From: an uncultured bacterium
GTDB taxonomy: Bacteria; Omnitrophota; Omnitrophia; Omnitrophales; Abzuiibacteriaceae
Length of the DNA stretch: 64,000 nt
Assembly: GCA_964387845.1 (NCBI GenBank)
Contig: CAYLXA010000001.1
Span: 128,001 to 192,000 of the forward strand
Direction of reading: 5' to 3'
This document shows, piece by piece, positions 3,818-58,918 of the stretch; the first letter of the stretch is position 1, and each line of letters begins with the position of its first letter. The position numbers were made by a program, and so were the translations under genes. Under the pieces are notes generated by a model. That model worked only from the letters and a program-made list of their open reading frames with translations. It made no database searches and was not told the origin of the DNA.

Positions 3818-3927
3818 AGTGGTTTAGCCTGCTTTCTTAAAAAGTGTTTAAATAGTACCATTTTACACCTAATATGGCAAGTTTATGACCCAATATTTAA
3901 TAATTACAGATAAAAATAGAAGGAAAA

Positions 3928-6632: not shown

Positions 6633-6642
6633 TTTTTTCTCC

Positions 6643-8382: not shown

Positions 8383-8386
8383 TGCA

Positions 8387-15501: not shown

Positions 15502-15586
15502 TTTAAACTCCTGTTGATCAAAATAACTGTAAAATCTCCACACGCCGCTCGTTAAAGGTTTCGGCGCAAAGAAGTATTTTGAGAAA

Positions 15587-26962: not shown

Positions 26963-26972
26963 GCCTGGCTCC

Positions 26973-44900: not shown

Positions 44901-45286
44901 CGCAATCTTTCATCGGATAGGGCCCTAAAAATAAATTGACGCTTGTCGGTTCTTCGCCGGTAACGCGCAATAGAAAAGTCTTTTAAAAATTCATCAGCCG
45001 TGAGCGCTTTGCCGTTATATTTTTTAAGAAATCTGGAAAGTCTTTCAACGTCTTTCTTTAAAATGGAAATCCGCGAAGCCTGGTTTGCCAGCGCGCTTGT
45101 CCGCAATTCAGAACGGACAATAGCCGGATTTAAGTTCCGGAAGGAACGGCTCTTTAAATAACTTGCGGCTTTTTGAAAGAAGGCGGTGGCAGACGGAATA
45201 TCACTGTACGCAATGGTGCTTGTGAAGGTAAAACTCAGCAGGGTTGTGAGGGCAATGGTTTTGAATAAAGCGGACTTTAATTTCAC
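35933..45286 (-). CDS. 3117-aa giant secreted/membrane protein with seven RSELR/KSELR motifs and two Rossmann/methyltransferase-like motif-I regions
   Basis: Single uninterrupted ORF. Signal peptide MKLKSALFKTIALTTLLSFTFTSTIAYS. Two central hydrophobic helices (LMWPVVVASTVGFLSLHVF; IVWASVFGSVLSMIAALFYYFPVV). ILELGDGGNP and VLDLASGTNAV resemble SAM-MTase motif I. Confidence 0.85.
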   Translation of the reverse strand: MKLKSALFKTIALTTLLSFTFTSTIAYSDIPSATAFFQKAASYLKSRSFRNLNPAIVRSELRTSALANQASRISILKKDVERLSRFLKKYNGKALTADEFLKDFSIARYRRRTDKRQFIFRALSDERLREQSETFSPAAIRLIARLQAAGYLGSFESRRKPDPQNPRIGDLFFADELNGHGFLLLVYHPVSGDWYNIRVVPNETQAEKASRFQFFTQYETGFVFVGSAEGTFKTGDLKTIGDVPEEVQKFVRLIQKNISFYTKEKPFSKKIATGGSLSESYFLEFDDENKKTIKITIHASSFEGNLSLQMQDGNRAAVSLSSVFQGSVVGKTSELELTNLGREFLWRNFYRDEDVTFRGDLATVFSALERSGGLGDRILELGDGGNPLSAVMYPKKKIVALALRPPKDIEQKGNVLTVRADVERIESMSPEDRHAIDLVLREGKPSSQLSPPHLYSQFDTIVISNLLNYVDAQKVAGEVLANMSPGASVVVQNSVLLYATKSSLNPRGVKTNAELVNLFRRRNIDVQVFGLPLSRSASWEKYGIDGPLRELTLKEAATEFEGVLYLVARRKAAKNVKPLLLRRLSLPEAGKVLAGASGFLKTARRSELRMNELGQPLFYPTAEKMAQKMFDHFDIPQDAAHKILLDNTIYFLKQIQKSIHRSLTDDDFDFFMKIMSMEDQLFQLSKDLAKPDLESGASENYIQINSEIEQLIRSWNKEKSPRLRVLPADLRLFEEINGVSFVHNMLHRLYFHLTHPYTNLEHFQNSILLVDELKKALDFVRAKESYSESDLYPRVYLFGSLRHALGIGDLDVRIWREIGITHVKDASFNSNLIDLYFRPEKGGEDAFAFDPVLFGNNGLNFVYFFHLTKLLQLYFSGALSTRLAGQLAISKLKHENFNLSQIPDGERYRFGNWFAQLDIQYYVQSMVPKPLQAIADDARKRNAELIQWREQFREIQHDLSDKWIRSELRSLMWPVVVASTVGFLSLHVFHQISSRRVSKPWPTELLEKFGIEDYKDLRGRILRQANGYLAQMIFQYHYYLNFDTFWPEVVRSLPMFSDFEYIYDELERVIQFSERAYLENLPEARLFLQKLGEFAAVMAFSAKHFDDEVPVYLNSNDPKLRRLPVLDLASGTNAVNFFKQISGDDHFIFSDRSFFVEAFSKRAKKFLRLGDQIEIRRVDIRDPALLFQEPAYRHVRFGNIDRYVDSLSQEWFRQLIARIPEGGQITFEYPFDELEFDFDGAGDSILKAFREFIHPEEWQSSTGSRAIPAFYKSGRYWHYLVFTRIATNQTTPRSELRASTEVVRLETIDPTRLNHKLHGKIEFIAQNQLSSKNGSVLKLEGESRDPRIIQIWTHLGFRPLVPEKEIADTIIGVANDFSSHTRIIVDHSGKPSTIQINFKKEIELNGKKLRSISLFLDSGKSHLPFHLIPARGKELDATPSKLNSLRSAIESGVLHVAEVVYGLPTAQSRDHLLTKLFGHTEYQNVLHDDETTAAKRADALGKVQQIKRDWRNNEQRLDEERRQAERPGEIEKLILRLPNEEPFVFHGPWEKPFVLLPENGKSGYAALETKRGQVIQFEFGPEDSDHHIVSLAKQALNNLLERQKRLKHAKRQILKKRIVWASVFGSVLSMIAALFYYFPVVRWFKRDLQYRLFEDPAPQVPYDPVDLSIGFSKLDQFALRVPPGNSEKMDRLAEELRFILDQDLKYAETEEDRNLIREFISLISKGSRLAIGNEVTLNGRSLLKPFEIVLMKAPQSKDEPNSALAAIDYDYTAWLPRKFRLMNIRYFINVAKFIHYPEKTNNPRAVQFKKYRQIHRNNISLAIQPDGSYRFDQDLNRKMILKGETFYESAQKDPSMKRLLDYYQDPKMKDWFRRYVVYATQPHYEQFVVLAEAVLKEIGPPGNFDDYIQSFSDEERREAVANELKNLRHIMRPDGSLDKRKIRLAALFQAWLDEINGNREIENPLSLTFLLSGRPEVDFSIFTEDFGFKTPEAEKDFSWLFEYADPMLEAFDAEHARSFKLTAEFDNQKQPAERSELRTKSGDIGNSGWSKLEIDLAEMGQRLFEIEELLTQRLVKQKDSVMMRLGNNDAKKAVKDFFDYVVGQVDLEHGAYPPLFYLVHNRRFDQLLTQAISAAGTYHYISVADGFRSELETIQTELARTPEKLNTYFQTDIFHELVSLAMRFHYSERNGQPLDPMDKLIAAAAKYLLAGMRQYQGRFIHLAIRQFQVGQLLKQMIIDPAFKEDDIGFIKIKRVQKTNTVEIYYLDSDAQRDVIKSEKFKLEKQDAFYFLTLLQFFTQQIDINRGNVDQIGSFILADPKNPNRKLIFKVEALANEINDLSIEVSNYKKRNNAQNGSAGGQRSELRALSQLLIEMGKRSDELKKFLEEDFREGLDPIEIINPDDPETENKVGLTMDQEGQFLRAVGKMRYLTASGLAYDEVRSLLEDAKNLFEDFRDKSPLFRQLGHLLTLLVLSEVDADELLDPGKFHGLLERFDKLDMKRLTQSRTMTERERLELKGAQFALWIMNRDQGRFLLSIASNHETPLPYSKLVQSYVLKPVFKLKQAKSVRLIRNGAVVTVIVSKDSDSKISARHFTAKPAGNALHFFTLVKLIAKDVAIERQRAGSDYGTFVLNDASESLEFKVRVIPTKNPAQEEVLITIENRSELRGHEDGRLNDVIPEPDGLLLKKLLSFADNDQVFLDNAAALAQKSAQGAALLFGILGPHLRHDHRIGTDELDIQLMPILIKGFLPSLKEFLKDPVQNRQKILEYGSALINGLLFVPNKTAASHGAEFFKQNDFPVDAFGLEAYREILQDISENLDNDPSQDFLSIVRQIAALFPEVFLGPEIPIFLRHQGEAQGEIDAEQLADFNKQNQTNFTLWQYVTGQASEYYRRVAEKEEKFTESYEHEFQKIYTYLVKGDGAKSELRFDHLNPFDGLEMHIETMESSVREAARQIDADPGLFLTPELRNYLNRTFEISGDSNQDLHLKRGVILMDILTREAGTVTPLLVRYYKAQGYEVAVVSDGAAAVSFQADERMKVFQYPDQAAHYLKKKLQVGFIQALGLKEDRGIALAMKNRGVIDDESSADDIRGLFNIVKFSSELRAEFQNAHELIIKA

Positions 45287-45476: not shown

Positions 45477-46547
45477 ATGGACCATACGCATCATCAAAAA
45501 ACAAACGGATCTGAATGCTGCCATCATTCGGAGCAGGCTCGCCGGAAAGCGCCGTGGTATCACAATAAGCTGACAATCATTTTGCTAGGCACTGCCCTGC
45601 TTTATGGCGTGTCTTTTATTTTTCAGCCTCTTCTTGCATTTCGCGAGTCATTTGACAGTTATTTGAAAATCATCGCCATTCCGATGCTCATTGGGCTTCT
45701 CTTGGGCGGCGTGATCGATTACTACATCCCGCAGGAATATGTCTCAAAATATTTAGCACGCACCACGAAACGCACTGTTTTTTACGCAACAGGCCTCGGA
45801 TTTCTGATGAGCGCCTGCAGCCACGGTATTTTGGCACTTTCCATGGAACTTCATAAAAAAGGCGCATCAGGCCCTGCGGTTGTGAGCTTTCTTTTAGCAA
45901 GCCCGTGGGCCAATTTGCCGGTCACTTTTCTTTTGATCGGATTTTTCGGGTGGAAAGGGTTTTTGATTATCTTGGCCGCATTTCTAGTTGCGATTACCAC
46001 AGGTCTCGCGCTTCAACTTTTAGACAGTCGGGGCCTGATTGAAAAGAACCGGCATACTTCTGCGGTGAACTCGGAATTTTCAATTTTGAAAGATATGAAA
46101 CGGAGATTTTCCGAATATGAGTGGACTTTCTCCAATTTATCCAAGGACCTGCGCGGCATCGGAAAAGGCTCTTGGGAGCTTTCGGAAATGATTTTATGGT
46201 GGATTTTAATCGGACTGATTCTCGCGAGCCTGACATCTGCGTTTGTGCCGCACGGAATTTTCCAGAAATATTTCGGGCCGACCTTGCTTGGCTTAGTGGC
46301 TACTTTGCTTTTGGCCACTATTTTTGAAGTTTGCTCGGAAGGCACATCGCCTTTGGCGTTTGAAATTTATAAACAAACGGGCGCATTCGGCAACGCGTTT
46401 GTTTTCTTAATGGGCGGCGTGGTAACGGATTACACCGAAATCGGGCTTTTGTGGATTAATCTTGGAAAACGAACTGCGCTTTGGACACTGGCGTTATCAA
46501 TTCCGCAGGTGTTTTTGATTGGCTGGGCGCTCAATATACTTTTCTAG
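45477..46547 (+). CDS. predicted permease (DUF318-like multi-TM protein) with a Cys/His-rich N-terminus
   Basis: 356 aa with ~8 TM segments. N-terminal CCHH cluster. Confidence 0.6.
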   Translation: MDHTHHQKTNGSECCHHSEQARRKAPWYHNKLTIILLGTALLYGVSFIFQPLLAFRESFDSYLKIIAIPMLIGLLLGGVIDYYIPQEYVSKYLARTTKRTVFYATGLGFLMSACSHGILALSMELHKKGASGPAVVSFLLASPWANLPVTFLLIGFFGWKGFLIILAAFLVAITTGLALQLLDSRGLIEKNRHTSAVNSEFSILKDMKRRFSEYEWTFSNLSKDLRGIGKGSWELSEMILWWILIGLILASLTSAFVPHGIFQKYFGPTLLGLVATLLLATIFEVCSEGTSPLAFEIYKQTGAFGNAFVFLMGGVVTDYTEIGLLWINLGKRTALWTLALSIPQVFLIGWALNILF

Positions 46548-47416
46548 CCGATCCGGAGCCGGACGGTTTCCTGTTTACCGTCTTTCTCGATCACAATGCT
46601 GGTGGGCTTAATTTCAATGATCTTCGTATGGCCCACTTGATCGCCGGGGCGCCAGATTTTTCCATTAATCAAAACAACCGGGTCGGAAGCATCATACATA
46701 ATGCCTTCCAGCACTAAATCTTCATGAGGCGCAGATTCAGCCCATGTCTTGAAAGGATTACGGCCGAATTCCCGGAACCGTGTCTTGCCTGCTTTTCGCA
46801 ATTCAACCGACAATTGGCCTTGATCCATATAAATCAGCTTTTCGTCATTCTCCGGAACAAAAACGGATACCGTCAGTGGCCCCCGGAGAAAATCGCTTTC
46901 GGGATTAGGCGGTGAAAACCGGAATTCGTCAACCCGCATGACGGCTTGATCCAACTTTCCCAGTTGTGAAAGAAATAGCGCGACATCCTGATAACTACCG
47001 CGGATCGTCATATCGATCGGAATCCGCGATAAATTCGGAAGCAGTTTTTTCTCGCTTTCATTTAAATCGGTTTTTGCCCTGGGTGAAATAGAATCAAATT
47101 GCACATTAAAGCGTTTGCCGGTGCTTGTGATTTGTTCGATGTAGGTCGCAACATTATTTCCTGACGTAAACTTAGCGAGCTCTTCTTTTAATTCTGCATT
47201 CGCGGCGGGTTCATTCAGCCGGTCCAATTGCCAGACTTCCTCGCGGTAATGATCCAGCTGGCGGCGGGTCTCGTAATAACCACTTTTTGCCTTGTCCACG
47301 CGAAGCGCCATAACACCGACTAGTGCAAGCATCGCGCACCCGATGACGCCGATAGCGCTCATTGGAATATGCTTGTGCCCGATTTTGATATCAATTTTCA
47401 TGTCTGAAAACTTCAA
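46544..47416 (-). CDS. fused PilO-like / PilP-like pilus assembly protein
   Basis: TM helix, then a coiled coil, then a PilO-type block (IDMTIRGSYQDVALFLSQLGKLDQAVMRVDEF). The C-terminus has a PilP/GspC-like beta-domain (VLINGKIWRPGDQVGHTKIIEIKPTSIVI). Confidence 0.5.
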   Translation of the reverse strand: MKFSDMKIDIKIGHKHIPMSAIGVIGCAMLALVGVMALRVDKAKSGYYETRRQLDHYREEVWQLDRLNEPAANAELKEELAKFTSGNNVATYIEQITSTGKRFNVQFDSISPRAKTDLNESEKKLLPNLSRIPIDMTIRGSYQDVALFLSQLGKLDQAVMRVDEFRFSPPNPESDFLRGPLTVSVFVPENDEKLIYMDQGQLSVELRKAGKTRFREFGRNPFKTWAESAPHEDLVLEGIMYDASDPVVLINGKIWRPGDQVGHTKIIEIKPTSIVIEKDGKQETVRLRIG

Positions 47417-49020
47417 ATCGCCTCTCCCAATATTGAAAAAGTGACTGATTTTTCATTCCGGTCAGACTCGGCCAAAGTAGGTTTTCGAAAAACCGGGCCT
47501 TCAATCTGCTCCAGTGATTTCGAGAGGAGCCCCTGCTGACTGTCGACCGGGAAACTGCCTTTAATGATAAACAAGCCTCTCTGATAAGAGAATTCGGATA
47601 AAGTCACTTCTCTCGGAAATGCTTGAGATAACTCCTGAAAAACATCCTCCCAGTAAGGTTCTGAGGAAAAAACTCCGGAGATCAGTGTTTTCACCTGCAT
47701 GCTTTTCTGACGGATTGCTTTCACTTTTTGCGCTTCTTCATATCCCGGCTGCAGGTTCGCAATTTGCAAATGTAAAGACTTTGTCTTATCTGAGATGGTA
47801 ATGGATTGCCAGGCCAGACTTGAAAACAGTAAAACAAAAGCGGTCAAAGCGGCAATGGCTGTTTGCCGGTACGAAAAGAATTTAACCGCGGAGTTCCCCA
47901 TCTTGAGCAAATCGGGAAGCCACGGCTTTTTTAAATTATGCCTATCTAAAATAATGCTGATAGGACGGTAAAAACCGTTCAAATCGTCTTCACGGAGTTT
48001 GTCGGAAATTTCAATGTCCTGGAAAAAATAAACGGGCTTAACGGGGACTTGGAGAGTTTGTTCCACAAATTGAATAAACCCCTTAAGTCGGCTTCCGCCG
48101 CCTGTGAGAAAGATACGTTCAATTCCTTCCCCGTGTTCCTGGGAGTAAAAATCAAAAGAACGCCGGAGTTCACCGGTTAATTTTTGTAAAACGGGCCGGA
48201 TGAGCGGATATAATTTTGAAGCTTCGATTTTGCCGGCAATCAAATTTTCATTTTCGGCACCCAAAAATACGCTCTCATGCCGTGCCCGATCGGCCTCTTC
48301 CATGGTTAGCGCAATGCGTCCTTTATCAGTCACGATAGGCTGCGTGAGCGCCTGGCTCAATAATTCGCCGCCGAAAGAAATTTTGCGCAGAAAATCAAGC
48401 CGGCCGCCCGCATAAAGCGCGATTTCCGCAATTTTATGGCCAATATCAACCACTGTTACCAAATGCCGCGTCGACTGTGCGAAGGCATACGGCAAATGAT
48501 CGACTTCGAAAGCTGCATTCGCCAATTCAAAAGAACTGCAGCCGGATTCGCGGAGAATGCCGGCCAATGTCTCATAAACCTTGACGGGAAGAGCTGTTAC
48601 TAAAACTGTCTGTCTAAGGTCCTTTTTTTGACCCGGCATAGGTACGATTTTGTAATCTAGTTTCGCTTCTTCGATGGCAAACGGGAGTTCATCTTTTACT
48701 TTCCATTTAATTGTGTCGACCAAGTCTTTTTGAGATATGTTCGGAACGACAAAAGACCCGAAATAAGTTTGGAGGCTGTTGGTTACTAAAAAAACGGTAT
48801 GGCGGCTCAAATCAAACCCGGACAAAGCTTTCGCGGCTGCTTGCTTCAGCGTTTCCCTGGCCTGAGCAACATCCTCGTAAGGCGGAACCGGAATGCTCCG
48901 TGCCTCCAGAAGATGGAACCGCTTTGCGGCCGTTTTTATCTGGACAATTTTGACAGAGGAAGAAGCGAACTCGATTGCCAAGAAGAAGCGTTCGCGGTTT
49001 TCGTTGGGCCAATTCAGCAT
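47413..49020 (-). CDS. fused PilM (actin-like ATPase fold) - PilN pilus assembly protein
   Basis: N-terminus LAIEFASSSVKIVQIK, a PilM-type start. After ~370 aa there is a TM helix plus a PilN/GspL-like periplasmic region. Confidence 0.65.
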   Translation of the reverse strand: MLNWPNENRERFFLAIEFASSSVKIVQIKTAAKRFHLLEARSIPVPPYEDVAQARETLKQAAAKALSGFDLSRHTVFLVTNSLQTYFGSFVVPNISQKDLVDTIKWKVKDELPFAIEEAKLDYKIVPMPGQKKDLRQTVLVTALPVKVYETLAGILRESGCSSFELANAAFEVDHLPYAFAQSTRHLVTVVDIGHKIAEIALYAGGRLDFLRKISFGGELLSQALTQPIVTDKGRIALTMEEADRARHESVFLGAENENLIAGKIEASKLYPLIRPVLQKLTGELRRSFDFYSQEHGEGIERIFLTGGGSRLKGFIQFVEQTLQVPVKPVYFFQDIEISDKLREDDLNGFYRPISIILDRHNLKKPWLPDLLKMGNSAVKFFSYRQTAIAALTAFVLLFSSLAWQSITISDKTKSLHLQIANLQPGYEEAQKVKAIRQKSMQVKTLISGVFSSEPYWEDVFQELSQAFPREVTLSEFSYQRGLFIIKGSFPVDSQQGLLSKSLEQIEGPVFRKPTLAESDRNEKSVTFSILGEAI

Positions 49021-49027
49021 GATGATT

Positions 49028-49546
49028 TTAACTGGAAAAAGTGCCTGTTCCGTTGGTTATAAAAATATCATCGTCATTTTGGCCCGTTAACTTTCCATTA
49101 TTATCAATACCGGTAATATCCGCCGCGCCGTCTGGGCCATATGAAAATGCAACGTAATATTTACCGTTTCCGCTGACGGAATAACTATACTCCGCATTTG
49201 CGGTTCGGAATGGATCATACAGAACTTGCCTCAGAACACGCGGGCTGTCACTCGCTAAATCACTACTTTGCCAATCCGATCCCGTCGGATAGGTGCTGGA
49301 ATGATTTAAATAATAAGCGTTGACGGCCGTCTGGATTGCTCTTAAATCACCTTTGGCAGTTTCAATGTTTTTATGCTCGCTCATCCCGCGCATCCGGATC
49401 AGTGAAATTCCGAGAATAATCACGACAAGCGCCAAAACAAAAATCATTTCGAGGACCGAAAAACCTTTCTTTGTGAATCGATCCCCGACACACACTGCGC
49501 GATACACGAAATCAAACCTCCGCCCAGGAATTTGCTTTTTTGGCAT
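49028..49546 (-). CDS. prepilin-type major pseudopilin (GspG-like), paralogue 2
   Basis: KKGFSVLEMIFVLALVVIILGI N-methylation motif. C-terminus ends ...NDDDIFITNG. Start is uncertain: ATG at 49546 or GTG at 49495. Confidence 0.65.
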   Translation of the reverse strand: MPKKQIPGRRFDFVYRAVCVGDRFTKKGFSVLEMIFVLALVVIILGISLIRMRGMSEHKNIETAKGDLRAIQTAVNAYYLNHSSTYPTGSDWQSSDLASDSPRVLRQVLYDPFRTANAEYSYSVSGNGKYYVAFSYGPDGAADITGIDNNGKLTGQNDDDIFITNGTGTFSS

Positions 49547-50744
49547 AGGTGTAAGTGGTAGTCGTCGTAAAGCCCGCCGGCAAACTAACGGGCAAGTAAC
49601 TTGAATTGTAAGTAATGGCTGCTTGATTAATGATGTTATCGCTTTGAAGCTCATTGGCAACTACGCTTCCGTGAACCACGGCATCATCCTGCACATTGGC
49701 GTTATCCGTAAAAATAATTCCCTCAAATGTTGCTGAATTCAAAATTTTGACTTGTTGATTGGTTTCGGGCGCCATCAAAACCGAAACAACATCAGCGCTG
49801 TCCTTCACAACCACATTGTTTTGGCTGTAAACCAGGCCGCCGCCCTGAACGGTAGTTGTATCTTGAATGGTAATGGTTTTTGCCGAAATCAAATTGACCT
49901 GCGAGCCAATTCCTGCGCTATTTTTAACATCAACCGCTTTGGTTGCCACCAAGTTCCCGGGCCCGGTAACCGTGGCATTGTCTTTGATCGTAACGCTTTT
50001 GTAATAGACGGTTTGCCCGGATAAATTTAAATTAGACGTTCCCGAAAGCGTTAGGTTTGAAGCGGCGTTGGCTTCGGCTTGCACAATGGCGTTGTCGTAA
50101 GTTGTCTTTGTAAAGGAAGGCATGCTGGGCGCAGGACTCGGATAACTCGGCGCCTGGGTATAAGTTCCGCCGCCCGTGACCGAATCGGCATAAACAAGGC
50201 CATTAATGACTTGTGAATTATTTCTTACGATGACAGAATCGGTACCGGCGGTTGGGTTGTAATAGACATTGCCCGATACAACAACGGTATGCGCATTCGT
50301 ATTTCCGACTTTAAGCGTATGATTGCCGCTCGGATTAGTTCCGACAAAAACCGCGTAAGAAAATGCGCTTGGAAAATTAACGGTGGTTGTTACCGTTTCG
50401 GTTTGAGTTAACTGCCTTGATTGACTATTATAAGTACCGGTCGAGTTAATAATGACATCGTCAACCGGCCGGGACAAATCAACCGAATAGGAGCCGCCGG
50501 CAAAACTATTATTCGAGAAACTGGAAATCCCGCCTATACTTAATGTGATGTCACCGTTTTTAAGCCGGTTCACGGCATCCGCAATGCCTGCTTCGGCCAT
50601 CCAAAACGCTTTTGCATCATTGGCATGCACCGCGATGCCGCGCATATCCGTTGTCAGGCTCACAATCAGCCCGCCCACAACCGCGGACAAAACAATCATA
50701 ATGACAATAGACAAAAGAAGAACAAACCCGTTTTTTTTACGCAT
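49512..50744 (-). CDS. PilX-N-domain minor pilin-like protein with a beta-helix-like C-terminal domain (GspK analogue)
   Basis: Hydrophobic N-terminus without Glu5, followed by RGIAVHANDAKAFWMAEAGI, which matches the PilX_N pattern. Confidence 0.55.
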   Translation of the reverse strand: MRKKNGFVLLLSIVIMIVLSAVVGGLIVSLTTDMRGIAVHANDAKAFWMAEAGIADAVNRLKNGDITLSIGGISSFSNNSFAGGSYSVDLSRPVDDVIINSTGTYNSQSRQLTQTETVTTTVNFPSAFSYAVFVGTNPSGNHTLKVGNTNAHTVVVSGNVYYNPTAGTDSVIVRNNSQVINGLVYADSVTGGGTYTQAPSYPSPAPSMPSFTKTTYDNAIVQAEANAASNLTLSGTSNLNLSGQTVYYKSVTIKDNATVTGPGNLVATKAVDVKNSAGIGSQVNLISAKTITIQDTTTVQGGGLVYSQNNVVVKDSADVVSVLMAPETNQQVKILNSATFEGIIFTDNANVQDDAVVHGSVVANELQSDNIINQAAITYNSSYLPVSLPAGFTTTTTYTYAKKANSWAEV

Positions 50745-51246
50745 TGCGGGGCCTCACATAAGCGCTAACAGCCAGCGTATCGCTTCCGGCCGTTGCGCTA
50801 AGCCTTAACCGAGCCACATTGCCGGAACTGGTGATGGTTGTACTGAAAGGGGCATTCAAATTGGTTGTGATTAAATCGCCCGATCCGTAAGAAAAGCCTG
50901 TCACAGCCGCGCGCCTCAGATCATAACTCGTTTGATTAAACGCCGGCGGCCATACGTCGGCAGCGTTGTGTAAATAATAACGGTATTGAACATTTGAACC
51001 GCTTTCATGCAGGGTAAACGTTACCGCATGGTTGGAGACGGTAACAGCGTTGGCATTCCGAATGTCCCGCGTCATGCGCTCTAACGCAAAATACAGCTTC
51101 TCGTGCAAATCAGTCCGGTTTCCGATGTGATGCGAATTTCGCATGGCAACAATATAAACAAAAAGAATTGATGCGATTAAAAAAACGATGAGCGTAATCG
51201 TAAAAACCATTTCGAGTAACGTGAAACCGCGCTCTTGATTTTTCAT
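50737..51246 (-). CDS. prepilin-type minor pseudopilin (GspJ-like)
   Basis: ERGFTLLEMVFTITLIV N-terminal motif. 169 aa. Confidence 0.6.
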   Translation of the reverse strand: MKNQERGFTLLEMVFTITLIVFLIASILFVYIVAMRNSHHIGNRTDLHEKLYFALERMTRDIRNANAVTVSNHAVTFTLHESGSNVQYRYYLHNAADVWPPAFNQTSYDLRRAAVTGFSYGSGDLITTNLNAPFSTTITSSGNVARLRLSATAGSDTLAVSAYVRPRNA

Positions 51247-51248
51247 GA

Positions 51249-51659
51249 TCAGCCATTCACCACATAAGTACTGAGTGTAACGCTCGTCTCGCCGTTAGGA
51301 ACAGTCCAATAAGTCGTTACATCGACTTTCTTTAAATAAGCAGGGACACTGGTCACTGTTACCTGCTGTTCAAATGTTGTGAGCAATGTTGTGCCTGTAA
51401 TATCAAAAACGAGGGAGCGGCCGCTGGAGGCAACACTGGCGAAAGAACTGTCTTTGATTTCTTCGAGTTTGCGCTGAGTCAAGGAAAGGGCAAGTGAATA
51501 ATTTTCGACATCACTTTGTCCAAAAACGCCGCGGTTCATGGCTTCCATTAAAGCGAAAATGCTGATCCCGACAATGAGTGTCGTGATCAGCACTTCCAAA
51601 ATCGTGAAGCCGCGTTTCGATTTTAACTGGTGTGAGCGATACTTAAGTTTGACAAACAT
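51249..51659 (-). CDS. prepilin-type minor pseudopilin (GspI/PilV-like)
   Basis: KRGFTILEVLITTLIVGI N-terminal motif. 136 aa. Confidence 0.6.
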   Translation of the reverse strand: MFVKLKYRSHQLKSKRGFTILEVLITTLIVGISIFALMEAMNRGVFGQSDVENYSLALSLTQRKLEEIKDSSFASVASSGRSLVFDITGTTLLTTFEQQVTVTSVPAYLKKVDVTTYWTVPNGETSVTLSTYVVNG

Positions 51660-51678
51660 TCCATTGCGATGAATCTAA

Positions 51679-52152
51679 TTACGCAGAAAGTTGCCCGTTT
51701 GTCACATAAATATCATCGTCAACTTCGCCGACAACGATATTGCCGCTGGCATCCGGCACTGTGCTAATATCCGCGGTCCGGTCCGGTCCGACCGAATAGA
51801 TGACATAATATCTGCTGTTGGCGGAAATTTTATATTTATAGGGCGAACTTGCGGTGAACGGATCCACGAAATCGCTGACCTCTCCAACCATCCGAGGCGT
51901 AGCACCTTCCAGAGCGCTTTCTAAATCGGCAGTCGTGCCTGCGGTAGCGGCCGGAAGCGTCGGGCTTGTACGCAATAAATAAGACTCGAGCGCGGTTTGG
52001 AGCGTCCTTAATTCTGCAGCAGCCTTGGCTTTTCGGCCTTCATCCGAAACGCCCGTAAACCTGGGCAGCGCAATGCCGACGATAATCAAAATAAGCGTGA
52101 TAACCACCAAGATTTCGAGCAATGTAAAACCTTTTTCTGATTTCAACACCAT
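51679..52152 (-). CDS. prepilin-type major pseudopilin (GspG-like), paralogue 1
   Basis: EKGFTLLEILVVITLILIIVGIALP N-terminal motif. C-terminal ...VDDDIYVTNG, the same ending as paralogue 2. Confidence 0.7.
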   Translation of the reverse strand: MVLKSEKGFTLLEILVVITLILIIVGIALPRFTGVSDEGRKAKAAAELRTLQTALESYLLRTSPTLPAATAGTTADLESALEGATPRMVGEVSDFVDPFTASSPYKYKISANSRYYVIYSVGPDRTADISTVPDASGNIVVGEVDDDIYVTNGQLSA

Positions 52153-52175
52153 GATGAAACTCCTCCTTCGTTTGT

Positions 52176-53384
52176 TTATTGAGGGCTGAAAATTTTAATC
52201 ATATCGAAAATAGGAAGCAGAATAGAGAGCATGATAAAGCCGACTATTACCCCCATGAAAAGAACAAAAAACGGCTCGAGGCTGTCTGTTAACTTCTTGA
52301 GGCTTCTTGCGATCAGTTCGTCATAAAAGCTGGCAATTTTATGCAGCATTTTATCGAGGCTGCCCGAATGTTCGCCGGTTGCCACCATCTGAACTACATC
52401 GTTCGGGACAGCCGAACTCTTCTGTAACGTATCGGCTAACTTGCCGCCACCCTGAACGGATTCATAGGTTTTTTTAAAGATATCCTGAAAGATACTATTC
52501 GATGTTAAATTTTGTGAAATTTCGAGCGTTTGCAGAATATTCACGCCGCTTGAAATCATGAGCGCCACGCTGCGGCTCCAGCGGCTGATTTCGATTCGCT
52601 TGATTAATAATCCAACCAGCGGAAATGACAGCCAAAAACTGTCCCATGCCCGCCGGAAAAATTCAATTCGCATAAAAACCGGAAATAAAGCGGCAAACAC
52701 CGCGAAAAACGCCAAGATCCAAAAACCAAACTGCCGCATCCACAAGCTGAGGTTATAGACCATTTGCGTGGGCAACGGAAGCGATACGCCTGATTTGCTG
52801 AAAATCGTAATAAAAGAAGGCACAACCCATACCATCATAAATGCTACCACCGCGACACTGGCCAGCATCAGAACGATCGGATAAGCAAGCGCAGAACTGA
52901 TTTTATGATTGAGTTCCGATTTGGCTTCTTCCAGCTGTGCCACATAACGCAGAACCTGCGATAAATTTCCGCCGGCCTCCCCCACTTTCATCATGGCACG
53001 ATACAGAGACGGAAATAGATGTTCGTGATGCGCTGATGCTTCTGACAAACTTTCACCGTTTTCGATCCGGGCAATCAGATTCTTAACGGTTTCTTTAAAA
53101 GATTGATTTTCAACCTGATGAACAATTGTTTGAAGTGCGGAAAGCATCGGAAGACCGGCTTCCAGCATGTTGCTGAGCTGCACGTAAAAAAGTATCACAT
53201 CGTCTGGCGAAACACGGTTTCCAAAACTCATCGCAACTGGCGAAGCTTTCGAGCGTTTGATGGATGCGACTAAGTAACCCTGCTTAACCAACTGATCAGC
53301 CAGCGCCTTTTCGGAAATCGCTTCCGTAATTCCTTGCACTTTCCTGCCGGATTGATCATGGACTTTATAAACGTAAGAAGGCAT
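52176..53384 (-). CDS. type II secretion / type IV pilus inner-membrane platform protein (GspF/PilC family)
   Basis: 402 aa. Two repeated T2SSF domains with three TM segments. Confidence 0.85.
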   Translation of the reverse strand: MPSYVYKVHDQSGRKVQGITEAISEKALADQLVKQGYLVASIKRSKASPVAMSFGNRVSPDDVILFYVQLSNMLEAGLPMLSALQTIVHQVENQSFKETVKNLIARIENGESLSEASAHHEHLFPSLYRAMMKVGEAGGNLSQVLRYVAQLEEAKSELNHKISSALAYPIVLMLASVAVVAFMMVWVVPSFITIFSKSGVSLPLPTQMVYNLSLWMRQFGFWILAFFAVFAALFPVFMRIEFFRRAWDSFWLSFPLVGLLIKRIEISRWSRSVALMISSGVNILQTLEISQNLTSNSIFQDIFKKTYESVQGGGKLADTLQKSSAVPNDVVQMVATGEHSGSLDKMLHKIASFYDELIARSLKKLTDSLEPFFVLFMGVIVGFIMLSILLPIFDMIKIFSPQ

Positions 53385-53390
53385 TGCTTA

Positions 53391-55088
53391 TTATCCTTCC
53401 TGGGTTACGCGCATAATTTCTTCGATCGTCGTAACACCGGAAACAATTTTTAAAAATCCGTCTTCGCGCAGCGTTTTCATGCCGGCCTGAATTGCCTTTA
53501 GTTTGATGTCATCGCCCGACGACTTTTGTAGAACCATTTTTTGAATTGCGTTATCCGGTACTAATATTTCGAAAAGACCGCTTCTGCCCTTATAGCCTGA
53601 TTTCTTGCATTGTAGACATCCCTTCCCCCGGTAGAGCTGCTTAGGAAGCTTGCTCATATCTGCTGTCATCAATTTGAGACTGGCGATCTCGGCATCGACC
53701 GGGCTGTAAGCTGTTTTACAGTCTTGGCAAATGGTCCGAATAAGGCGCTGCGCAACCACGCCCGTAATAGTGGAAGCCACCAAAAAAGGTTCGACGCCCA
53801 TATCAATCAAGCGCGTAAAAGCAGACGCAGCGTCATTGGTATGCAAAGTCGAAAAAACAAAGTGGCCTGTCAGCGCTGCTTGAATCGCAATGTTCGCCGT
53901 GTCTTTATCCCGGATTTCACCGACCATGATTACGTCCGGATCCTGGCGCAAAATCGAACGGAGGCCGCTCGCAAACGTGAGATTGACCTTCGTATTGACT
54001 TGAATCTGGCGGATTAACGGAAGCTGGTATTCAACAGGGTCTTCAATCGTTACAATATTTTTTTCCGCGTTATTGATCTGATTAAGCGCACCGTAAAGCG
54101 TCGTGGTTTTTCCGCTTCCCGTGGGGCCTGTGATGAGCAAAATACCGTAAGGTTTTTTGATTAACTCATTAAAAACGGTCAGACTCTCTTTTCCCATACC
54201 CAATTTCTCTAACGGCAAAATCGCGCTTTGCAGATTGAGGAGCCGGACGACAATATTTTCTCCGTGGATCGTCGGCATCACGGAAATGCGCAAGTCAAGC
54301 GGCCGGCTATCAAGGTCCATGCGGACACGTCCGTCCTGCGGCACGCGGCTTTCCGCAATATCCAAATTGGAAATGACTTTCACGCGTGACACAACGCCGG
54401 AATGAAGTTCCGTCGGATACTGGTCTACTTCACGTAAAATTCCGTCAATGCGGAAACGTACGACGACTTTATCTTTCTCCGGCGAAATATGAACGTCGCT
54501 GGCGCCGTCGCGTTGAGCTTGTGAAATCATGGTATTAACCAACTTGATAATGGGCGCTTCTTCGGGCTTGATTTCCTGCGAGACGATCGCTTCCTTTTGA
54601 GCAGTGATGGTCAACTCATCCTGCATCGATTGAACCATATCGCTCACATCGCTTTTGACGCCATAATACTGCTCGATGGCGCCTCTGATTTCGGCCTCGG
54701 TTGCAAGCGCTTGCTCAATTTCATAACCTGTCCGGATACGTAATTGATCGATAAGGTTTAAATTAAACGGATCGCTCGTTGCGACCGTCAGGCGTTTTCC
54801 GATTTTTAAGACCGGAAAAACACGAAACCGCCGGACAATATCCTGGGGCAGGATCGCGAGCACTTCTTTTTTGACGATTTGGTGAGAAATTTCGATTTCG
54901 GGAATGCTGAGTTTCTGGCTCAAGAACGAGACAAACTTTCGCTCGTCGACAAAACCGAGTTTACGCAGCGCTTTTTGAAAAGGTTCATGCGTTCGGCGCA
55001 TCTCCGATTCGACCTGCTTCAGCTGCGAGGTTGTTAGCAAACCCTCGGCAACCAGATTTTCGCCAAGTGAAGGCGCCGTGTTTTTCAT
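53391..55088 (-). CDS. type II/IV secretion ATPase (GspE/PilB family)
   Basis: N-terminal GSPII_E_N-like region. Walker A GPTGSGKTTTLY, Asp box, Walker B and His box are present. Confidence 0.9.
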   Translation of the reverse strand: MKNTAPSLGENLVAEGLLTTSQLKQVESEMRRTHEPFQKALRKLGFVDERKFVSFLSQKLSIPEIEISHQIVKKEVLAILPQDIVRRFRVFPVLKIGKRLTVATSDPFNLNLIDQLRIRTGYEIEQALATEAEIRGAIEQYYGVKSDVSDMVQSMQDELTITAQKEAIVSQEIKPEEAPIIKLVNTMISQAQRDGASDVHISPEKDKVVVRFRIDGILREVDQYPTELHSGVVSRVKVISNLDIAESRVPQDGRVRMDLDSRPLDLRISVMPTIHGENIVVRLLNLQSAILPLEKLGMGKESLTVFNELIKKPYGILLITGPTGSGKTTTLYGALNQINNAEKNIVTIEDPVEYQLPLIRQIQVNTKVNLTFASGLRSILRQDPDVIMVGEIRDKDTANIAIQAALTGHFVFSTLHTNDAASAFTRLIDMGVEPFLVASTITGVVAQRLIRTICQDCKTAYSPVDAEIASLKLMTADMSKLPKQLYRGKGCLQCKKSGYKGRSGLFEILVPDNAIQKMVLQKSSGDDIKLKAIQAGMKTLREDGFLKIVSGVTTIEEIMRVTQEG

Positions 55089-55462
55089 GAACCTCCGAGA
55101 AGTTCCGAAACTTTGGCCAAAAGCGCAGGCGGTTCAAACGGTTTTGTCATGTAGCCGTTTGCGCCGCAATCTTCAAGGCCCATCCGCTCGTCTTCGACGC
55201 CCGCTTTTGCGGTAAAAAGGAGCACCGGAATTTTCTTATAGCGGTCATCGTGCTTTAAAGTCGCGCAAACCTGGTAACCGTCCATTTTCGGAAGCATTAA
55301 ATCCAAAATAATCAAATCCGGCTTTTCAGAACGCGCTTTGGCCAATCCTTCTTCTCCGTCAAAAGCCGTGACGATTTCGTAATCATGCGCTTCCAGACGC
55401 GCCTGAACGGCCATCACCAATTCTTCTTCATCGTCCACAATTAAAATCTTTTTCTTTGCCAT
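55085..55462 (-). CDS. single-domain CheY-like response regulator
   Basis: Receiver residues DD...D...T...K are present. Its stop overlaps the ATPase gene start (ATGA at 55085..55088). Confidence 0.8.
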   Translation of the reverse strand: MAKKKILIVDDEEELVMAVQARLEAHDYEIVTAFDGEEGLAKARSEKPDLIILDLMLPKMDGYQVCATLKHDDRYKKIPVLLFTAKAGVEDERMGLEDCGANGYMTKPFEPPALLAKVSELLGGS

Positions 55463-55476
55463 TGAATCCCTTTGGT

Positions 55477-55860
55477 TTAGGAAGTTTTCTTGGATCTTGC
55501 TTCGATTTCGCGAATTTGCTTCACCAAATCACCGCCGTCGACCGGCTTCATCATGAATGCCTCGGCGCCTTCGAGGCGGAATGCCTGTTCAATCATTAAA
55601 GCTTTTCCGGTTACGATGATAACCGGAATTTTTTTATCGGACATTTGATTAATTTGCTTCAGGGTTGCCAAGCCATCCAAATTCGGCATCAAAGCGTCCA
55701 TCACGATCAGGTCCGGTGCTTTTTTTTGAATCGATTCCAGCGCTTCTTTGCCGTCATAAGCCACTTCGGCCTTGAATCCTTCGGAGCTCAGGCGCATTTG
55801 AAACATCGACGCTAAATCGCGGTCATCATCAACAATTAAAATATTTTTCATTTGCGTCAC
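55477..55860 (-). CDS. single-domain CheY-like response regulator
   Basis: Receiver residues present. 127 aa. Confidence 0.8.
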   Translation of the reverse strand: MTQMKNILIVDDDRDLASMFQMRLSSEGFKAEVAYDGKEALESIQKKAPDLIVMDALMPNLDGLATLKQINQMSDKKIPVIIVTGKALMIEQAFRLEGAEAFMMKPVDGGDLVKQIREIEARSKKTS

Positions 55861-55869
55861 ACGGATGTT

Positions 55870-58230
55870 TTAGATTTTTGATGAAGTTGTTTTACCCAAA
55901 ATCGCCGACAAAAACACTTCCGGCGTCATGGATTGATGATTAAAGGTGTTGACCTGAAAAACGGCTTTAACCTTTAATTTCTCGATTTCGGTATTCATTT
56001 TATCTTTAATTTGAGCCACTTCCTGCGCATCGGCTTCTACGATTGCGGCGAGCCCTTTGCCTTCGTCATAACGCAAAACCATCTCGGTCGTTTTGCGTAA
56101 AGCGCCTTTCATGATTTCGCTCATTTTGCTGACTTCCTGATCCGGCATGGCTTCACCGTTTTTCAATTCTGCATGATCGGGATGAACGCCGATCACGGAA
56201 AACGGCGTCAATTTTTTCTGGCTTTCCTTCAGGCGCTGCTTGACTTCCAATTCAAAGACAGAATCAATTGTATGATATGGAAGCGTAAAAGTAAATTTGG
56301 TTCCTTTGCTGAATTCACTTTCAATCCACATTTTTCCGCCATGCATTTCGACAAGCCCTTTCGAGATCGCGAGGCCCAGTCCGGTTCCTTTGGCACCGCC
56401 GCCCGCCGCGCGGCCGAATTGTTCAAATTTACCGAATACTTTGCTTAAATTTTCACGTGCGATCCCGGTCCCGGTATCCGCCACGCTGAATTCCATTTCC
56501 TGCCCTTTGTGAACGGTTGTGACAACGACCATGCCGCTTTCCGGCGTAAATTTAGCCGCATTGCCGATTAAATTGGTAATGATTTGGATCAATTTGTCGC
56601 GATCAACAAACACCTTGGGTAATTTTTTATCAAAACTGGAATGAAGCGATATTTTTTTGCTTTCAAAATGGCCGCGGTAGGTTTCTAAAACGTCTTCGAT
56701 CAAAGCTTTGACATCCACGAATGAACGATTGAGCACGATTTTTCCCGCTTCGATTTTCGAAATATCAAGCAGGTCGTTGATGATCCGCGCCAAACGGTCA
56801 ATATTGCTCTTCGCGGTCGTTAAGAATTTTCTTTGCTTTTCATTCACTTCACCGCTCACACCGTCCAAGACTAGCGAAACAAATTCCTTAATAATGGCCA
56901 GCGGTGTCCTGAGCTCGTGGCTGACGGTTGAAACGAATTCGTTTTTCATCTGATCAATTTCTTTTTCCTTTGTCATGTCGCGGAAAATTTCGATTGCACC
57001 GATGGTTTTTCCTTCGCTGACGACCGGCGAAATCGTGAGCGCCACCGGAAAACGGGGCTGATTTTGGGAAGCGTAATAAACAGAAGTCGATGTGCTGCGG
57101 CCCGTCGTTAAAACCGACTGCAGCGGATCTTTGCTTTTATCGATTTCTTTTCCTTTATCATCCTGAAGTTTCACGACTTCGTGCAGGAATTTTCCGGACA
57201 CACTTTTCAAAGATTCACCGAGCATCTCCTCGGCCTGCTTGTTCATCATCATGATTTTACCTTCACGGTCCGTTGCGATCATGCCTTCCCCGATGCTTTC
57301 GAGCAGCGCTTCGTCTTTGGCCTTGGCTTGCTCGATTTCCTCTACTTTGAGGACGAGTTCCCGCGTTTTCTCCCGGACTTTTTGTTCGAGGCCGCCGTAG
57401 GATTCTTTGAGCTTCACCGTCATTTGATTAAAAGCTTTTGCCAGTTCGCCGACTTCGTCGTTGGATTCAACCGGAATTTGATAGTTGAGGTTTCCTTTTC
57501 CGATCACTTCAGCGCCTTGCTGAAGCGCGCTAATCGGCCGCGAAATCGACTGCGAAATCAGAAAGCCAAGAATAATGGCAAGCAAAACCGCGAAAATACT
57601 GACCTGCGTGATAAAACGCGTAGAACCTTTCAATAATGTAAGCGTTTCCTGGACTACGCGATCCACATTGTTGGATGTAACAACGAGCGATTCGCCCAGC
57701 TTTTTGCCGCGCCGCTCGACATATTGTTCAAGCCCCGATTTATACTCCTGCTTAAGCCGCCAATAATCGGCGCTTTCAAGCATCCGGATTGCTTCTTCGC
57801 GCATCCCGCCATCCACCGCTGCGATGGCTTTGTATTCCAGATCGACAAATGACTGTTTTGCTTTTTGAACATCCAAGAAAGATTTTTTGTCCTCAACGTC
57901 GCCTTTATCGATACTTTCTTTGATCACATTGCCAAGCTGCGGCTCCATATCTTTGTAGCGGTATTTCCATTTGAGATCGCCCGTCATCGCGTAATTGCGC
58001 GCCGCCTCCGTCAGGACTTGGTCATAGTAACGAATTTGCTGAGCGAGGCTGTCGAGACGGGATGTGCGTTCGATTTCTTTGAGTCCCTTGGGAATATCTT
58101 CGGTGAGCGGGTCGTAGAGCTTTTTCATTTCTTTAAATGAAAAAAGGCTCACAATCCCCACCAGTGACGCGATCACAAGGAATCCGGCCATGAGCCGCGT
58201 CGCGATGTTTAAATTCCGAAACATTTGCAT
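55870..58230 (-). CDS. sensor histidine kinase (TM-periplasmic-TM, HAMP, PAS, HisKA, HATPase) with a C-terminal degenerate GGDEF-like extension
   Basis: H-box FVSTVSHELRTPL. PAS block IGEGMIATDREGKIMMMN. G-boxes present. Start placed at MQMFRNL (58230); the ORF extends to 58287. Confidence 0.8.
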   Translation of the reverse strand: MQMFRNLNIATRLMAGFLVIASLVGIVSLFSFKEMKKLYDPLTEDIPKGLKEIERTSRLDSLAQQIRYYDQVLTEAARNYAMTGDLKWKYRYKDMEPQLGNVIKESIDKGDVEDKKSFLDVQKAKQSFVDLEYKAIAAVDGGMREEAIRMLESADYWRLKQEYKSGLEQYVERRGKKLGESLVVTSNNVDRVVQETLTLLKGSTRFITQVSIFAVLLAIILGFLISQSISRPISALQQGAEVIGKGNLNYQIPVESNDEVGELAKAFNQMTVKLKESYGGLEQKVREKTRELVLKVEEIEQAKAKDEALLESIGEGMIATDREGKIMMMNKQAEEMLGESLKSVSGKFLHEVVKLQDDKGKEIDKSKDPLQSVLTTGRSTSTSVYYASQNQPRFPVALTISPVVSEGKTIGAIEIFRDMTKEKEIDQMKNEFVSTVSHELRTPLAIIKEFVSLVLDGVSGEVNEKQRKFLTTAKSNIDRLARIINDLLDISKIEAGKIVLNRSFVDVKALIEDVLETYRGHFESKKISLHSSFDKKLPKVFVDRDKLIQIITNLIGNAAKFTPESGMVVVTTVHKGQEMEFSVADTGTGIARENLSKVFGKFEQFGRAAGGGAKGTGLGLAISKGLVEMHGGKMWIESEFSKGTKFTFTLPYHTIDSVFELEVKQRLKESQKKLTPFSVIGVHPDHAELKNGEAMPDQEVSKMSEIMKGALRKTTEMVLRYDEGKGLAAIVEADAQEVAQIKDKMNTEIEKLKVKAVFQVNTFNHQSMTPEVFLSAILGKTTSSKI

Positions 58231-58350
58231 AAAAGCCCCTGTGCTAGGTTGGAAAGGCGCACAATTACAGTTAATCTTTATCGGCAAATATGCGGCGAAG
58301 CTTTGAAGGCGTTTTAGGGGGATGCCGCCTCAAAGGCGAAATCCGGACCC

Positions 58351-58749
58351 TTAACTGCCTACTTTAAAGTTTACCTTAGAAAGCGCTTCTTGCAACTGGG
58401 CCTGGAATTTGGCCGGGTCAAGAGGTTTGGTAAGATAGGCAAAACCGCCTGCGTTTTTGGCGTGAAATTCGGTCTGGATGTCCGCAGCAGCGGTCAAAAA
58501 GATGACCGGAATGTGAGATGTCTTGGGGTCATTCTTCAGAATTTCGCAAATATCGATTCCGCTAAGGCCTGGAAGATTAACGTCGAGGATGGCCAAATCC
58601 AACTTTTCGGTTTCGATTTTCTCAAGAGCTTCTTTGGCGGTCGCAGCCTTCACAACCTCAAAATTCATAAGCTCAAGACGGATTTCAAGCGCTGTCAGCA
58701 AATCCGGCTCGTCATCAACAATAAGAATTCTTTTTTTAGCGTTGGGCAT
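58351..58749 (-). CDS. single-domain CheY-like response regulator
   Basis: RILIVDDEPDLL...D...T...K receiver pattern. 132 aa. Confidence 0.8.
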   Translation of the reverse strand: MPNAKKRILIVDDEPDLLTALEIRLELMNFEVVKAATAKEALEKIETEKLDLAILDVNLPGLSGIDICEILKNDPKTSHIPVIFLTAAADIQTEFHAKNAGGFAYLTKPLDPAKFQAQLQEALSKVNFKVGS

Positions 58750-58820: not shown

Positions 58821-58845
58821 CAATTTTTGCAGAGCAAAAATTGGC
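58821..58845 (-). terminator. 10-bp hairpin CCAATTTTTG-cagag-CAAAAATTGG at/after the tRNA-Asp 3' end
   Basis: Perfect inverted repeat that partly includes the CCA end. A second short GC hairpin (ggcgagcctcgcc) follows. Confidence 0.45.
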
Positions 58846-58918
58846 GGGAGCGACGGGACTTGAACCCGCAACCCTCAGATCGACAATCTGATGCTCTAAC
58901 CAATTGAGCTACGCCCCC
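58842..58918 (-). tRNA. tRNA-Asp (anticodon GTC), CCA encoded
   Basis: The reverse complement folds as a cloverleaf: acceptor GGGGGCG/CGCTCCC with a G-U pair, anticodon loop TTGTCGA, T-arm GCGGG-TTCAAGT-CCCGT, discriminator G, then CCA. Confidence 0.85.

Follow-up and report, generated by a model that had tools for sequence, protein, structure and literature searches.

Single-domain response regulators are known to control type IV pili, as do PilG/PilH in the Pseudomonas Chp system and the PleD/DivK-type proteins in Caulobacter, and in pilMNOPQ operons the pilQ gene normally follows pilP. Between the type IVa pilus (T4aP) and the system for type II secretion (T2SS) an equivalence of parts is accepted that sees PilM plus PilN as GspL, PilO as GspM and PilP as the HR domain of GspC (PMC4471445), and it is documented to be common that type IV filament systems are chimeric or 'generic', are encoded at several loci or share a peptidase (PMC6668835). 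The Omnitrophota, bacteria that have not been cultured and are for the most part ultra-small, are thought to live in dependence on other cells, with pili and secretion systems as their main candidate contact organs (PMC10066038). Here we analyse a gene cassette at 46544-58749 of a 64,000-nucleotide stretch of an Omnitrophota contig (CAYLXA010000001.1; called the window from here on), which is probably an Omnitrophota operon that encodes a generic or chimeric type IV filament machine along with a two-component module of its own, and which we favour as the source of a surface-exposed contact or adhesion fibre. As such, it is a lineage-specific version of a well-known machine family rather than a new kind of system.

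The cassette consists of 13 consecutive minus-strand open reading frames (ORFs), nine for the machine and four for signalling, where a sequence-only reading of the window had counted twelve genes, albeit with coordinates and strand that hold for all ORFs. Neighbouring genes overlap by 4-8 nt or lie less than 25 nt apart, a 63-nt gap after REC1 being the exception, and it is this tight packing that makes us regard the 13 genes as a single operon. Domains were called by Pfam and NCBIfam profile scans of the window ORFs with curated cut-offs, and such searches with T2SS and type IV pilus profiles, run ORF by ORF, support the machine components at Pfam/NCBIfam level, several of them below cut-off. 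From the first gene to the last, the cassette reads:

58351..58749, minus strand: REC1, stand-alone receiver, 132 aa, first gene of the cassette (Pfam Response_reg, 96 bits).
55870..58287, minus strand: sensor histidine kinase, 805 aa (Pfam 4HB-like periplasmic, HAMP, PAS, HisKA and HATPase_c domains; degenerate GGDEF-like tail).
55477..55860, minus strand: REC2, stand-alone receiver, 127 aa (Response_reg, 89.8 bits).
55085..55462, minus strand: REC3, stand-alone receiver, 125 aa (Response_reg, 94.6 bits; ATGA overlap with the ATPase gene).
53391..55088, minus strand: PilB/GspE-family extension ATPase, 565 aa (Pfam T2SSE, 454 bits, plus an MshEN-type N-terminal domain).
52176..53384, minus strand: PilC/GspF-family inner-membrane platform protein, 402 aa (Pfam T2SSF, 198 bits, in two stretches).
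51679..52152, minus strand: major pilin G1, GspG-type, 157 aa, cysteine-free (N_methyl; T2SSG, 22.5 bits).
51249..51659, minus strand: minor pilin, GspI/PilV-like, 136 aa (N_methyl; TIGR01707 28.5 and PilV 23.6, both below cut-off).
50737..51246, minus strand: minor pilin at the GspJ/PilW position, 169 aa (N_methyl; assigned by position).
49512..50744, minus strand: large tip-type pilin at the PilX/GspK position, 410 aa, lacking Glu5 (PilX_N, 20.8 bits, below the cut-off of 25.5).
49028..49546 (listed ORF to 49660), minus strand: second GspG-type pilin, G2, about 155-172 aa (T2SSG, 23.8 bits; N_methyl).
47413..49020, minus strand: PilM-PilN fusion, 535 aa (Pfam PilM_2, 80.9 bits).
46544..47416, minus strand: PilO with a C-terminal GspB/GspC-type HR domain, 290 aa (PilO, 38.4 bits, plus CdsD_C and T2SSB).

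The calls of a GspE/PilB-type ATPase and a GspF/PilC-type platform protein are borne out by their T2SSE and T2SSF scores, and the domain-level Pfam cut-offs for T2SSE, T2SSF and T2SSG are all passed in the cassette. At the finer level of NCBIfam, the ATPase scores practically equally with the models for GspE (TIGR02533: 622.9, cut-off 630.25) and PilB (TIGR02538: 614.6, cut-off 675.65), and its best solved relatives are the PilB proteins of Geobacter and Myxococcus, which align over the full length including the N-terminus. The platform protein reaches 351 with GspF (TIGR02120, cut-off 424) as opposed to 299 with PilC.

Both G-type pilins pass the Pfam cut-off for T2SSG (21) and carry N_methyl, which confirms the two GspG-like pilins originally proposed; with TIGR01710, the NCBIfam model of GspG, they score 54.8 (G1) and 33.2, the cut-off being 88.85. 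At 42% identity to each other, G1 and G2 are each conserved as an orthologous group of their own, neither has a cysteine in its mature part or a disulfide-bonded C-terminal region of the type IVa major pilin kind, and the globular domain aligns by profile with the pseudopilin PulG (5wda) only. Near the C-terminus both contain GPD...DDDI[FY][IV]TNG (DDDIYVTNG in G1), a motif that is kept in all orthologues; contrary to the sequence-only reading, which had both proteins end in DDDI[FY][IV]TNG, it lies 4-7 residues before the C-terminus. The listed start of G2 is a TTG at 49660, which lets the ORF reach about 150 nt into the end of the cap-pilin gene and gives a 66-residue leader ahead of the G|FSVLEM cleavage site; leaders of its orthologues measure from 6 to about 50 residues, and the annotated start is probably too far upstream. 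As for the minor pilins, the GspI-like assignment finds a weak profile match below cut-off and the GspJ-like one holds by position only, this pilin giving nothing more than weak matches to ComGF, ComGE and GspH.

What had been described as a large PilX-N-domain protein is indeed a 410-aa pilin in cap position, albeit with its PilX_N match short of the cut-off. It has a beta-helix-like C-terminal module with a weak Bactofilin-like repeat match, and a sequence search of solved structures found no relative. What the proteins in this position have in common across lineages is the N-terminal pilin segment and a motif NDAKAFW.AEAG, after which they diverge completely: beta-helix-like repeats are present in the window and its nearer relatives, T2SSK plus HHH in locus L019, whereas L020 and L027 carry a discoidin domain (F5/8 type C). 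Such swapping of tip modules, lectin-type domains included, is easier to reconcile with an exposed binding tip than with a periplasmic piston, and it is because the cap pilin carries a different module per lineage that we favour a surface-exposed contact or adhesion fibre.

The penultimate gene of the cassette had been read as pilM fused to pilN, and this is supported by profile, by the Pfam content of family members and by an AlphaFold2 (AF2) model searched with Foldseek. PilM_2 is found far above its cut-off of 27, the profile of the PilM-containing family matches PilM of Myxococcus, Thermus and Pseudomonas, and Pfam PilN is recognised in the C-terminal part of 10 of the 12 family members, the window protein itself not reaching it at E = 0.1. 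The model (mean pLDDT 81.5) shows an actin-like domain (11-345), a linker, a long helix (384-453) comprising a membrane segment and a coiled coil, and a periplasmic alpha/beta domain (457-534). Foldseek places PilM (5eou, 2ych, 3jc8) first and FtsA and MreB next. An identity as GspL was rejected since PilM comes top by profile as well as by fold and there is no GspL among the top 50 Foldseek matches. So by sequence and predicted fold the protein (PilMN) is a PilM-PilN fusion whose overall topology is that of GspL. With NF045709, the family of Amuc_1101 PilM-like proteins, it scores 84 bits against a family cut-off of 650.

For the last gene, the proposed PilO-PilP fusion stands in so far as PilO (Pfam cut-off 22) is fused to an HR-type domain; the domain, however, is of the GspB/GspC type and not Pfam PilP. 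By profile the protein matches PilO of Myxococcus and Pseudomonas. An invariant RNPF motif precedes the C-terminal 60 residues that make up the HR domain, and in orthologues this part is recognised as T2SSB (6/6), CdsD_C (5/6) and T2SSC (2/6); Pfam PilP was tried for it and gave no match, so that we assign the domain to the T2SSB/T2SSC/CdsD_C type. It comes without the PDZ or coiled-coil part of GspC. Structure prediction, which speaks for the PilMN fusion, is poor here (pLDDT 55.7). Within the limits of this low-confidence model, Foldseek relates the middle part to PilO, Amuc_1100 and, more weakly, PulM, and the C-terminal part to Dickeya GspB (4wfw) and the HR domain of GspC (3oss_C). The latter structure was solved in complex with GspD, and solved members of the HR family bind or accompany secretins. 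On sequence and model grounds, then, the HR domain is a predicted secretin-contact-type module and the T2SS counterpart of PilP. When the PilO-HR profile was searched against 1.84 billion representative proteins, full-length fusions fell into about 25 clusters (50% identity) at E < 1e-30 with some tens more distant, and many proteins of about 140 aa matched the HR part only. In the sister cassettes L027 and L029, PilO and the HR protein are encoded by adjacent separate genes, and the fusion may therefore be a simple joining of neighbours.

The histidine kinase and three stand-alone receivers that the sequence-only reading had seen heading the locus are confirmed by Pfam and conserved across related cassettes, and their wiring to the machine is its most distinctive feature. 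All three receivers have canonical phospho-acceptor residues (in REC1: DD, D, K) and no output domain, and are most like REC domains of the PleD/PhoB type. The ATGA overlap at 55085..55088, in which the stop of REC3 meets the start of the ATPase gene, could be confirmed by reading the sequence directly, and it predicts translational coupling of the two. In several lineages the gene of the ATPase-adjacent receiver likewise overlaps or abuts the ATPase gene, and no other cassette protein is as well conserved as its product, with 61-76% identity compared with 36-43% for PilMN. The C-terminal ~120 aa of the kinase (55870-56230, minus strand) align with GGDEF-annotated tails of orthologous kinases, yet a GGDEF motif was not found in any cassette kinase tail, be it in the window (LRYDEGKG) or in orthologues; by its sequence, we take the tail of this HisKA kinase for a GGDEF-like domain that is conserved and catalytically dead. 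The sister cassette L029 has, at its head, a KaiB-family gene (269-547) between two genes for PAS histidine kinases.

What, then, may be the input to the motor? Binding of cyclic di-GMP (c-di-GMP) by MshEN domains goes along with a published motif (PMC5013675), sought here as two 24-residue RLGxx(L)(V/I)xxG(I/F)(L/V)xxxxLxxxLxxQ stretches. Even in relaxed form it went unmatched in the window ATPase and five orthologues (6/6 fail), and with NF053729 the window ATPase scores 27.9 against a cut-off of 38. As the ATPases fail the published motif and the kinase tails are without GGDEF, c-di-GMP as the main input was rejected. With this rejection the likeliest input, to judge by conservation and the coupling of genes, would be phosphotransfer to the receivers, of which the one next to the ATPase would act on the motor.

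The closest database proteins to the cassette come from Omnitrophota/Omnitrophica metagenome bins, and the cassette as such (kinase, two to three receivers, ATPase, platform, five pilins, PilMN and PilO-HR) recurs in at least ten Omnitrophota lineages, namely at the loci of the window, L012, L010/L004, L006/L016, L008/L018, L014, L017, L019, L020 and L029. PilMN identity to the window protein declines from 74% to 35% across these lineages, and the flanking genes differ in almost every one of them. We therefore see a conserved architecture that, by its sequence record, appears phylum-restricted and is limited so far to Omnitrophota. In terms of synteny the two-component genes travel with the machine and both fusions recur (save for the split of PilO and HR in L027 and L029), which does not hold for the 3117-aa gene near the window cassette discussed below. 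Immediately upstream of the L004/L010 cassette lies a gene for a 536-aa Exo_endo_phos-domain protein (1-809), and the window encodes a 546-aa protein of that family (28208-29848, plus strand) 17 kb from the cassette.

The claimed absence of a secretin and a prepilin peptidase from the 64 kb is borne out by scanning every sizeable ORF. There is only one PilB/GspE-family ATPase in the window and none of PilT type in related cassettes. A secretin was found within 10 kb of the cassette in none of the related loci examined (at least ten), and in the window no pilQ follows the pilO gene and no Pfam PilP matches. A 468-aa ORF after the HR gene in L029 was considered as a divergent secretin and rejected, being a polytopic membrane protein. 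At other places in their genomes, Omnitrophota are reported to have secretins of the GspD/RcpA type; the supplements of PMC10066038 contain no pilQ, secretin or gspD entries as text. The machine needs an unlinked peptidase and probably also an unlinked secretin.

In the working model that we prefer, the prepilins would be processed by the unlinked peptidase, and ATPase, platform and the PilMN/PilO complex would polymerise G1 beneath a tip complex of the I, J and X pilins, perhaps with G2. Through the HR domain, the inner-membrane complex would dock to a secretin that is encoded elsewhere, at its N0 domain. The kinase would phosphorylate the receivers and these, having no output domain, would act by protein contact, the ATPase-adjacent one most likely by switching the ATPase on or off. 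The exposed fibre may then be used for contact with, or adhesion to, a surface or host cell.

A number of our findings sit uneasily with such an exposed fibre under direct phosphorelay control. All NCBIfam equivalog cut-offs are missed, so that assignment holds at the superfamily level; the confidence of the PilO-HR model is low; the receivers could equally be phosphate sinks or regulate transcription through an unseen partner; and no ORF of the window matches Secretin, Peptidase_A24 or a PilT-type ATPase. Moreover, a T2SS-like pseudopilus, and not a long pilus, is what the GspG-type pilins with their PulG-like acidic C-terminal motif, a gene order like E-F-G-I-J-K-L-M and the GspB/C-type HR domain point to. 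The evidence between T2SS and T4aP is split, and a divergent T2SS, in which a short periplasmic GspG-type pseudopilus would push Sec-exported folded proteins, for instance the large ones with signal peptides that these genomes commonly encode, through an unlinked GspD-type secretin with timing set by the two-component module, is to us a serious, if rather doubtful, reading. It would account for cysteine-free pilins that align with PulG down to the same acidic motif, for best NCBIfam matches to GspE, GspF, GspG and GspI, for an order (E-F-G-I-J-K-like, G2, L-like, M-like) that matches gsp operons (the L position of the T2SS operon at L024 is also PilM-type), for the lack of PilT in cis and for an HR domain of GspB/GspC type. 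In L019 the cap pilin is genuinely of the T2SSK family, the cassettes of L014 and L017 are directly followed by genes for large secreted proteins, such a gene is one gene away in the window, and the literature notes secretion or pilus genes beside Omnitrophota giant genes. Yet every T2SS equivalog cut-off of NCBIfam is missed, the alignment proteins are of the PilM/N/O and not the GspL/M type, the N-terminus of the ATPase is PilB-like and none of the ten or more lineages has a GspD in cis. Nor does the downstream cargo hold up well: the closest relative is without the 3117-aa gene, the large downstream genes are not homologous across all three cases, giant genes are frequent anyway, and the published T2SS-like locus beside giant genes has gspD and rcpC and hence is a different one. 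Lectin-type cap modules, finally, fit an exposed tip better than a piston.

The lack of a secretin gene in the 10 kb around the cassette, common to all lineages examined, and the polytopic membrane protein encoded behind the HR gene in L029 could also be taken to mean that the device works independently of a secretin, either as a periplasmic fibre or with a non-secretin outer-membrane partner and a re-targeted HR domain. We consider this very improbable given that the HR family is known to bind secretin N0 domains (compare the 3oss match), that Omnitrophota are reported with GspD/RcpA-type secretins elsewhere, and that the genes of a type IV filament system often lie at several loci, with components shared between systems (PMC6668835). 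Slighter still are, in our estimate, the chances of a pilus for DNA uptake (competence). The pilins do give weak matches of ComGC/ComGE/ComGF type, but these stay far below cut-offs and cover mainly the shared N-terminal helix, the window has no ComEA, ComEC or DprA, and the cap module varies by lineage to include lectin-type domains. In favour of such a pilus, ComZ of Thermus is a DNA receptor at the tip, and a large cap pilin with a beta-solenoid-like module may recall it. Among these options a surface-exposed contact or adhesion fibre is the one we prefer. A further-reaching version of it is improbable: a self-contained, phosphorelay-gated filament motor with the receiver as a stoichiometric partner of the ATPase and with no secretin of its own or a borrowed channel, serving cell-cell contact or the delivery of very large surface proteins in the host-dependent lifestyle of Omnitrophota. 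If true, type IV filaments would thereby gain a class that is new in regulation as well as in architecture.

The proposal that the machine is linked to the neighbouring 3117-aa gene is not borne out as a conserved trait. In the relative whose PilMN is 74% identical, the downstream flank is syntenic with the window (ArsP permease, formyltransferase, MscS, AsmA, RmlA) and the 3117-aa gene is missing from it; co-travel of this gene was hence rejected. In the window it lies one gene away from the cassette. Three very large ORFs, namely 2-3823 (minus strand, at least 1274 aa, running off the window edge), 16298-22060 (plus strand, 1920 aa) and 35933-45286 (minus strand, 3117 aa), make up about 30% of the window, so that chance would lead one to expect such a gene close by. 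Nine Flg_new_2 repeats and a PKD domain are present in the 1920-aa protein, of which the 74% relative encodes a homologue at a distance of about 7 kb from its cassette. Directly after PilO-HR and on the same strand, a large ORF is present in two of about nine other lineages: L014 (12699-18116, at least 1805 aa, FG-GAP and subtilase-like) and L017 (13161-21572, at least 2803 aa, GH141 insertion domain, beta-helix and FG-GAP). These two share an N-terminal domain of about 550 aa, which has no Pfam match, contains a QDAH...AQ.SI motif, is followed by differing adhesin- or glycosidase-type domains and is not shared by the 3117-aa protein of the window. All three large downstream proteins begin with signal-peptide-like segments. 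Secretion or pilus genes near giant genes of Omnitrophota have been published; that locus differs from ours as it contains gspD and rcpC. Taken together, we regard the association with giant genes as a weak lead and not as a property of the cassette.

The pentapeptide RSELR occurs seven times in the 3117-aa protein (along with KSELR and SSELR variants) and four times in the ORF of at least 1274 aa (along with one SSELR), at spacings of roughly 300-750 residues; the 64 kb, translated in six frames, contain no further copy. The two proteins have no BLAST similarity to each other and no Pfam domains, and by its distribution RSELR has the look of a site for processing or recognition that recurs in giant proteins not related otherwise. 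Other window genes, all on the minus strand, encode an NrfA/NrfH-type cytochrome c nitrite reductase (25634-27437), a CusCBA-like RND efflux system with a TolC-type outer-membrane factor (9652-15543) and a 2-oxoacid:ferredoxin oxidoreductase (5775-8418). TolC-type and AsmA-type genes in the window indicate a predicted diderm envelope. Upstream of the cassette, a tRNA-Asp(GTC) gene (58842-58918, minus strand) lies 92 nt before REC1 on the same strand, itself preceded by a good sigma-70-like site (58978-58949), and transcription of the cassette may start from the tRNA promoter or just behind it. Scans of the window for promoters and terminators returned no more sites than in shuffled sequence.

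Our findings do not overturn current understanding. Their value lies rather in a compact, conserved and phylum-restricted type IV filament machine whose in-operon kinase and receivers, together with the REC3-ATPase overlap, make a testable case in which a phosphorelay would control a pilus motor directly, with no chemosensory system involved. As natural fusions, PilM-PilN and PilO-HR are ready-made constructs for structural work on the alignment complex and illustrate how GspL- and GspC-type arrangements can arise from PilMNOP-type genes, and the module swaps of the cap pilin between lineages point to the contact target of the fibre.

How the cassette compares with described systems may be put as follows. 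To call its mix of T4aP and T2SS parts unusual, as the sequence-only reading did, is an overstatement: in view of the PilMNOP/GspLMC equivalence and of the common occurrence of documented chimeric systems, the mix is not surprising in itself. With the T4aP of Myxococcus xanthus, Pseudomonas aeruginosa and Thermus thermophilus the cassette shares the full-length ATPase match to PilB, alignment proteins of the PilM/N/O type and a minor-pilin set whose PilX-type cap lacks Glu5. It differs from them by fusing PilM to PilN, by a GspB/C-type HR domain on PilO in place of PilP, by lacking pilQ after PilO-HR and PilT in cis, by a GspG-type major pilin without a disulfide-bonded D-region and by a kinase and three receivers in the operon. 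With T2SS it has in common the gene order, GspG-type pilins with the PulG-like acidic motif, a GspI-like pilin, a GspK-type cap in one lineage, the GspB/GspC-type HR domain and the topology at the L position, where one cytoplasmic actin-like domain is joined by a transmembrane helix to a periplasmic domain. This comparison includes L024, a gspD-headed T2SS operon with GspJ, GspK and GspM, in which a more distant fused PilM-type protein occupies the GspL position; fused PilM-type proteins are therefore not unique to the cassette. Unlike T2SS, the cassette has no GspD, places its kinase and receivers where gspC/gspD usually sit, shows no GspL or GspM signatures and carries HR on the M-position protein rather than on a separate GspC with PDZ.

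As to control by PilG/PilH- and PleD/DivK-type regulators, the likeness lies in receiver-only proteins beside pilus genes, which implies post-translational control of the motor. In contrast to Chp-type control, the cassette is without CheA, CheW or a methyl-accepting chemotaxis protein, its kinase is a classical HisKA one with a degenerate GGDEF-like tail and one of its receiver genes overlaps that of the ATPase. Among PVC relatives, the pilus-like cluster Amuc_1098-1102 of Akkermansia is akin to the cassette through the matches of PilMN to NF045709 and of the PilO model to Amuc_1100; it differs in that the cassette stays far below the family cut-off (84 vs 650), in having no two-component module and, presumably, in having an adjacent secretin. 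Closest in kind are the 'generic' filament systems of Denise et al. 2019 (PMC6668835), with which the cassette shares ATPase, platform, major pilin and mixed best profiles, and for which secretin and peptidase need not lie in cis. By the definition given there (co-located ATPase, platform and major pilin, no specific model), the cassette fits this generic or chimeric class of type IV filaments; the class itself is a catch-all, whereas the cassette is a defined, conserved architecture.

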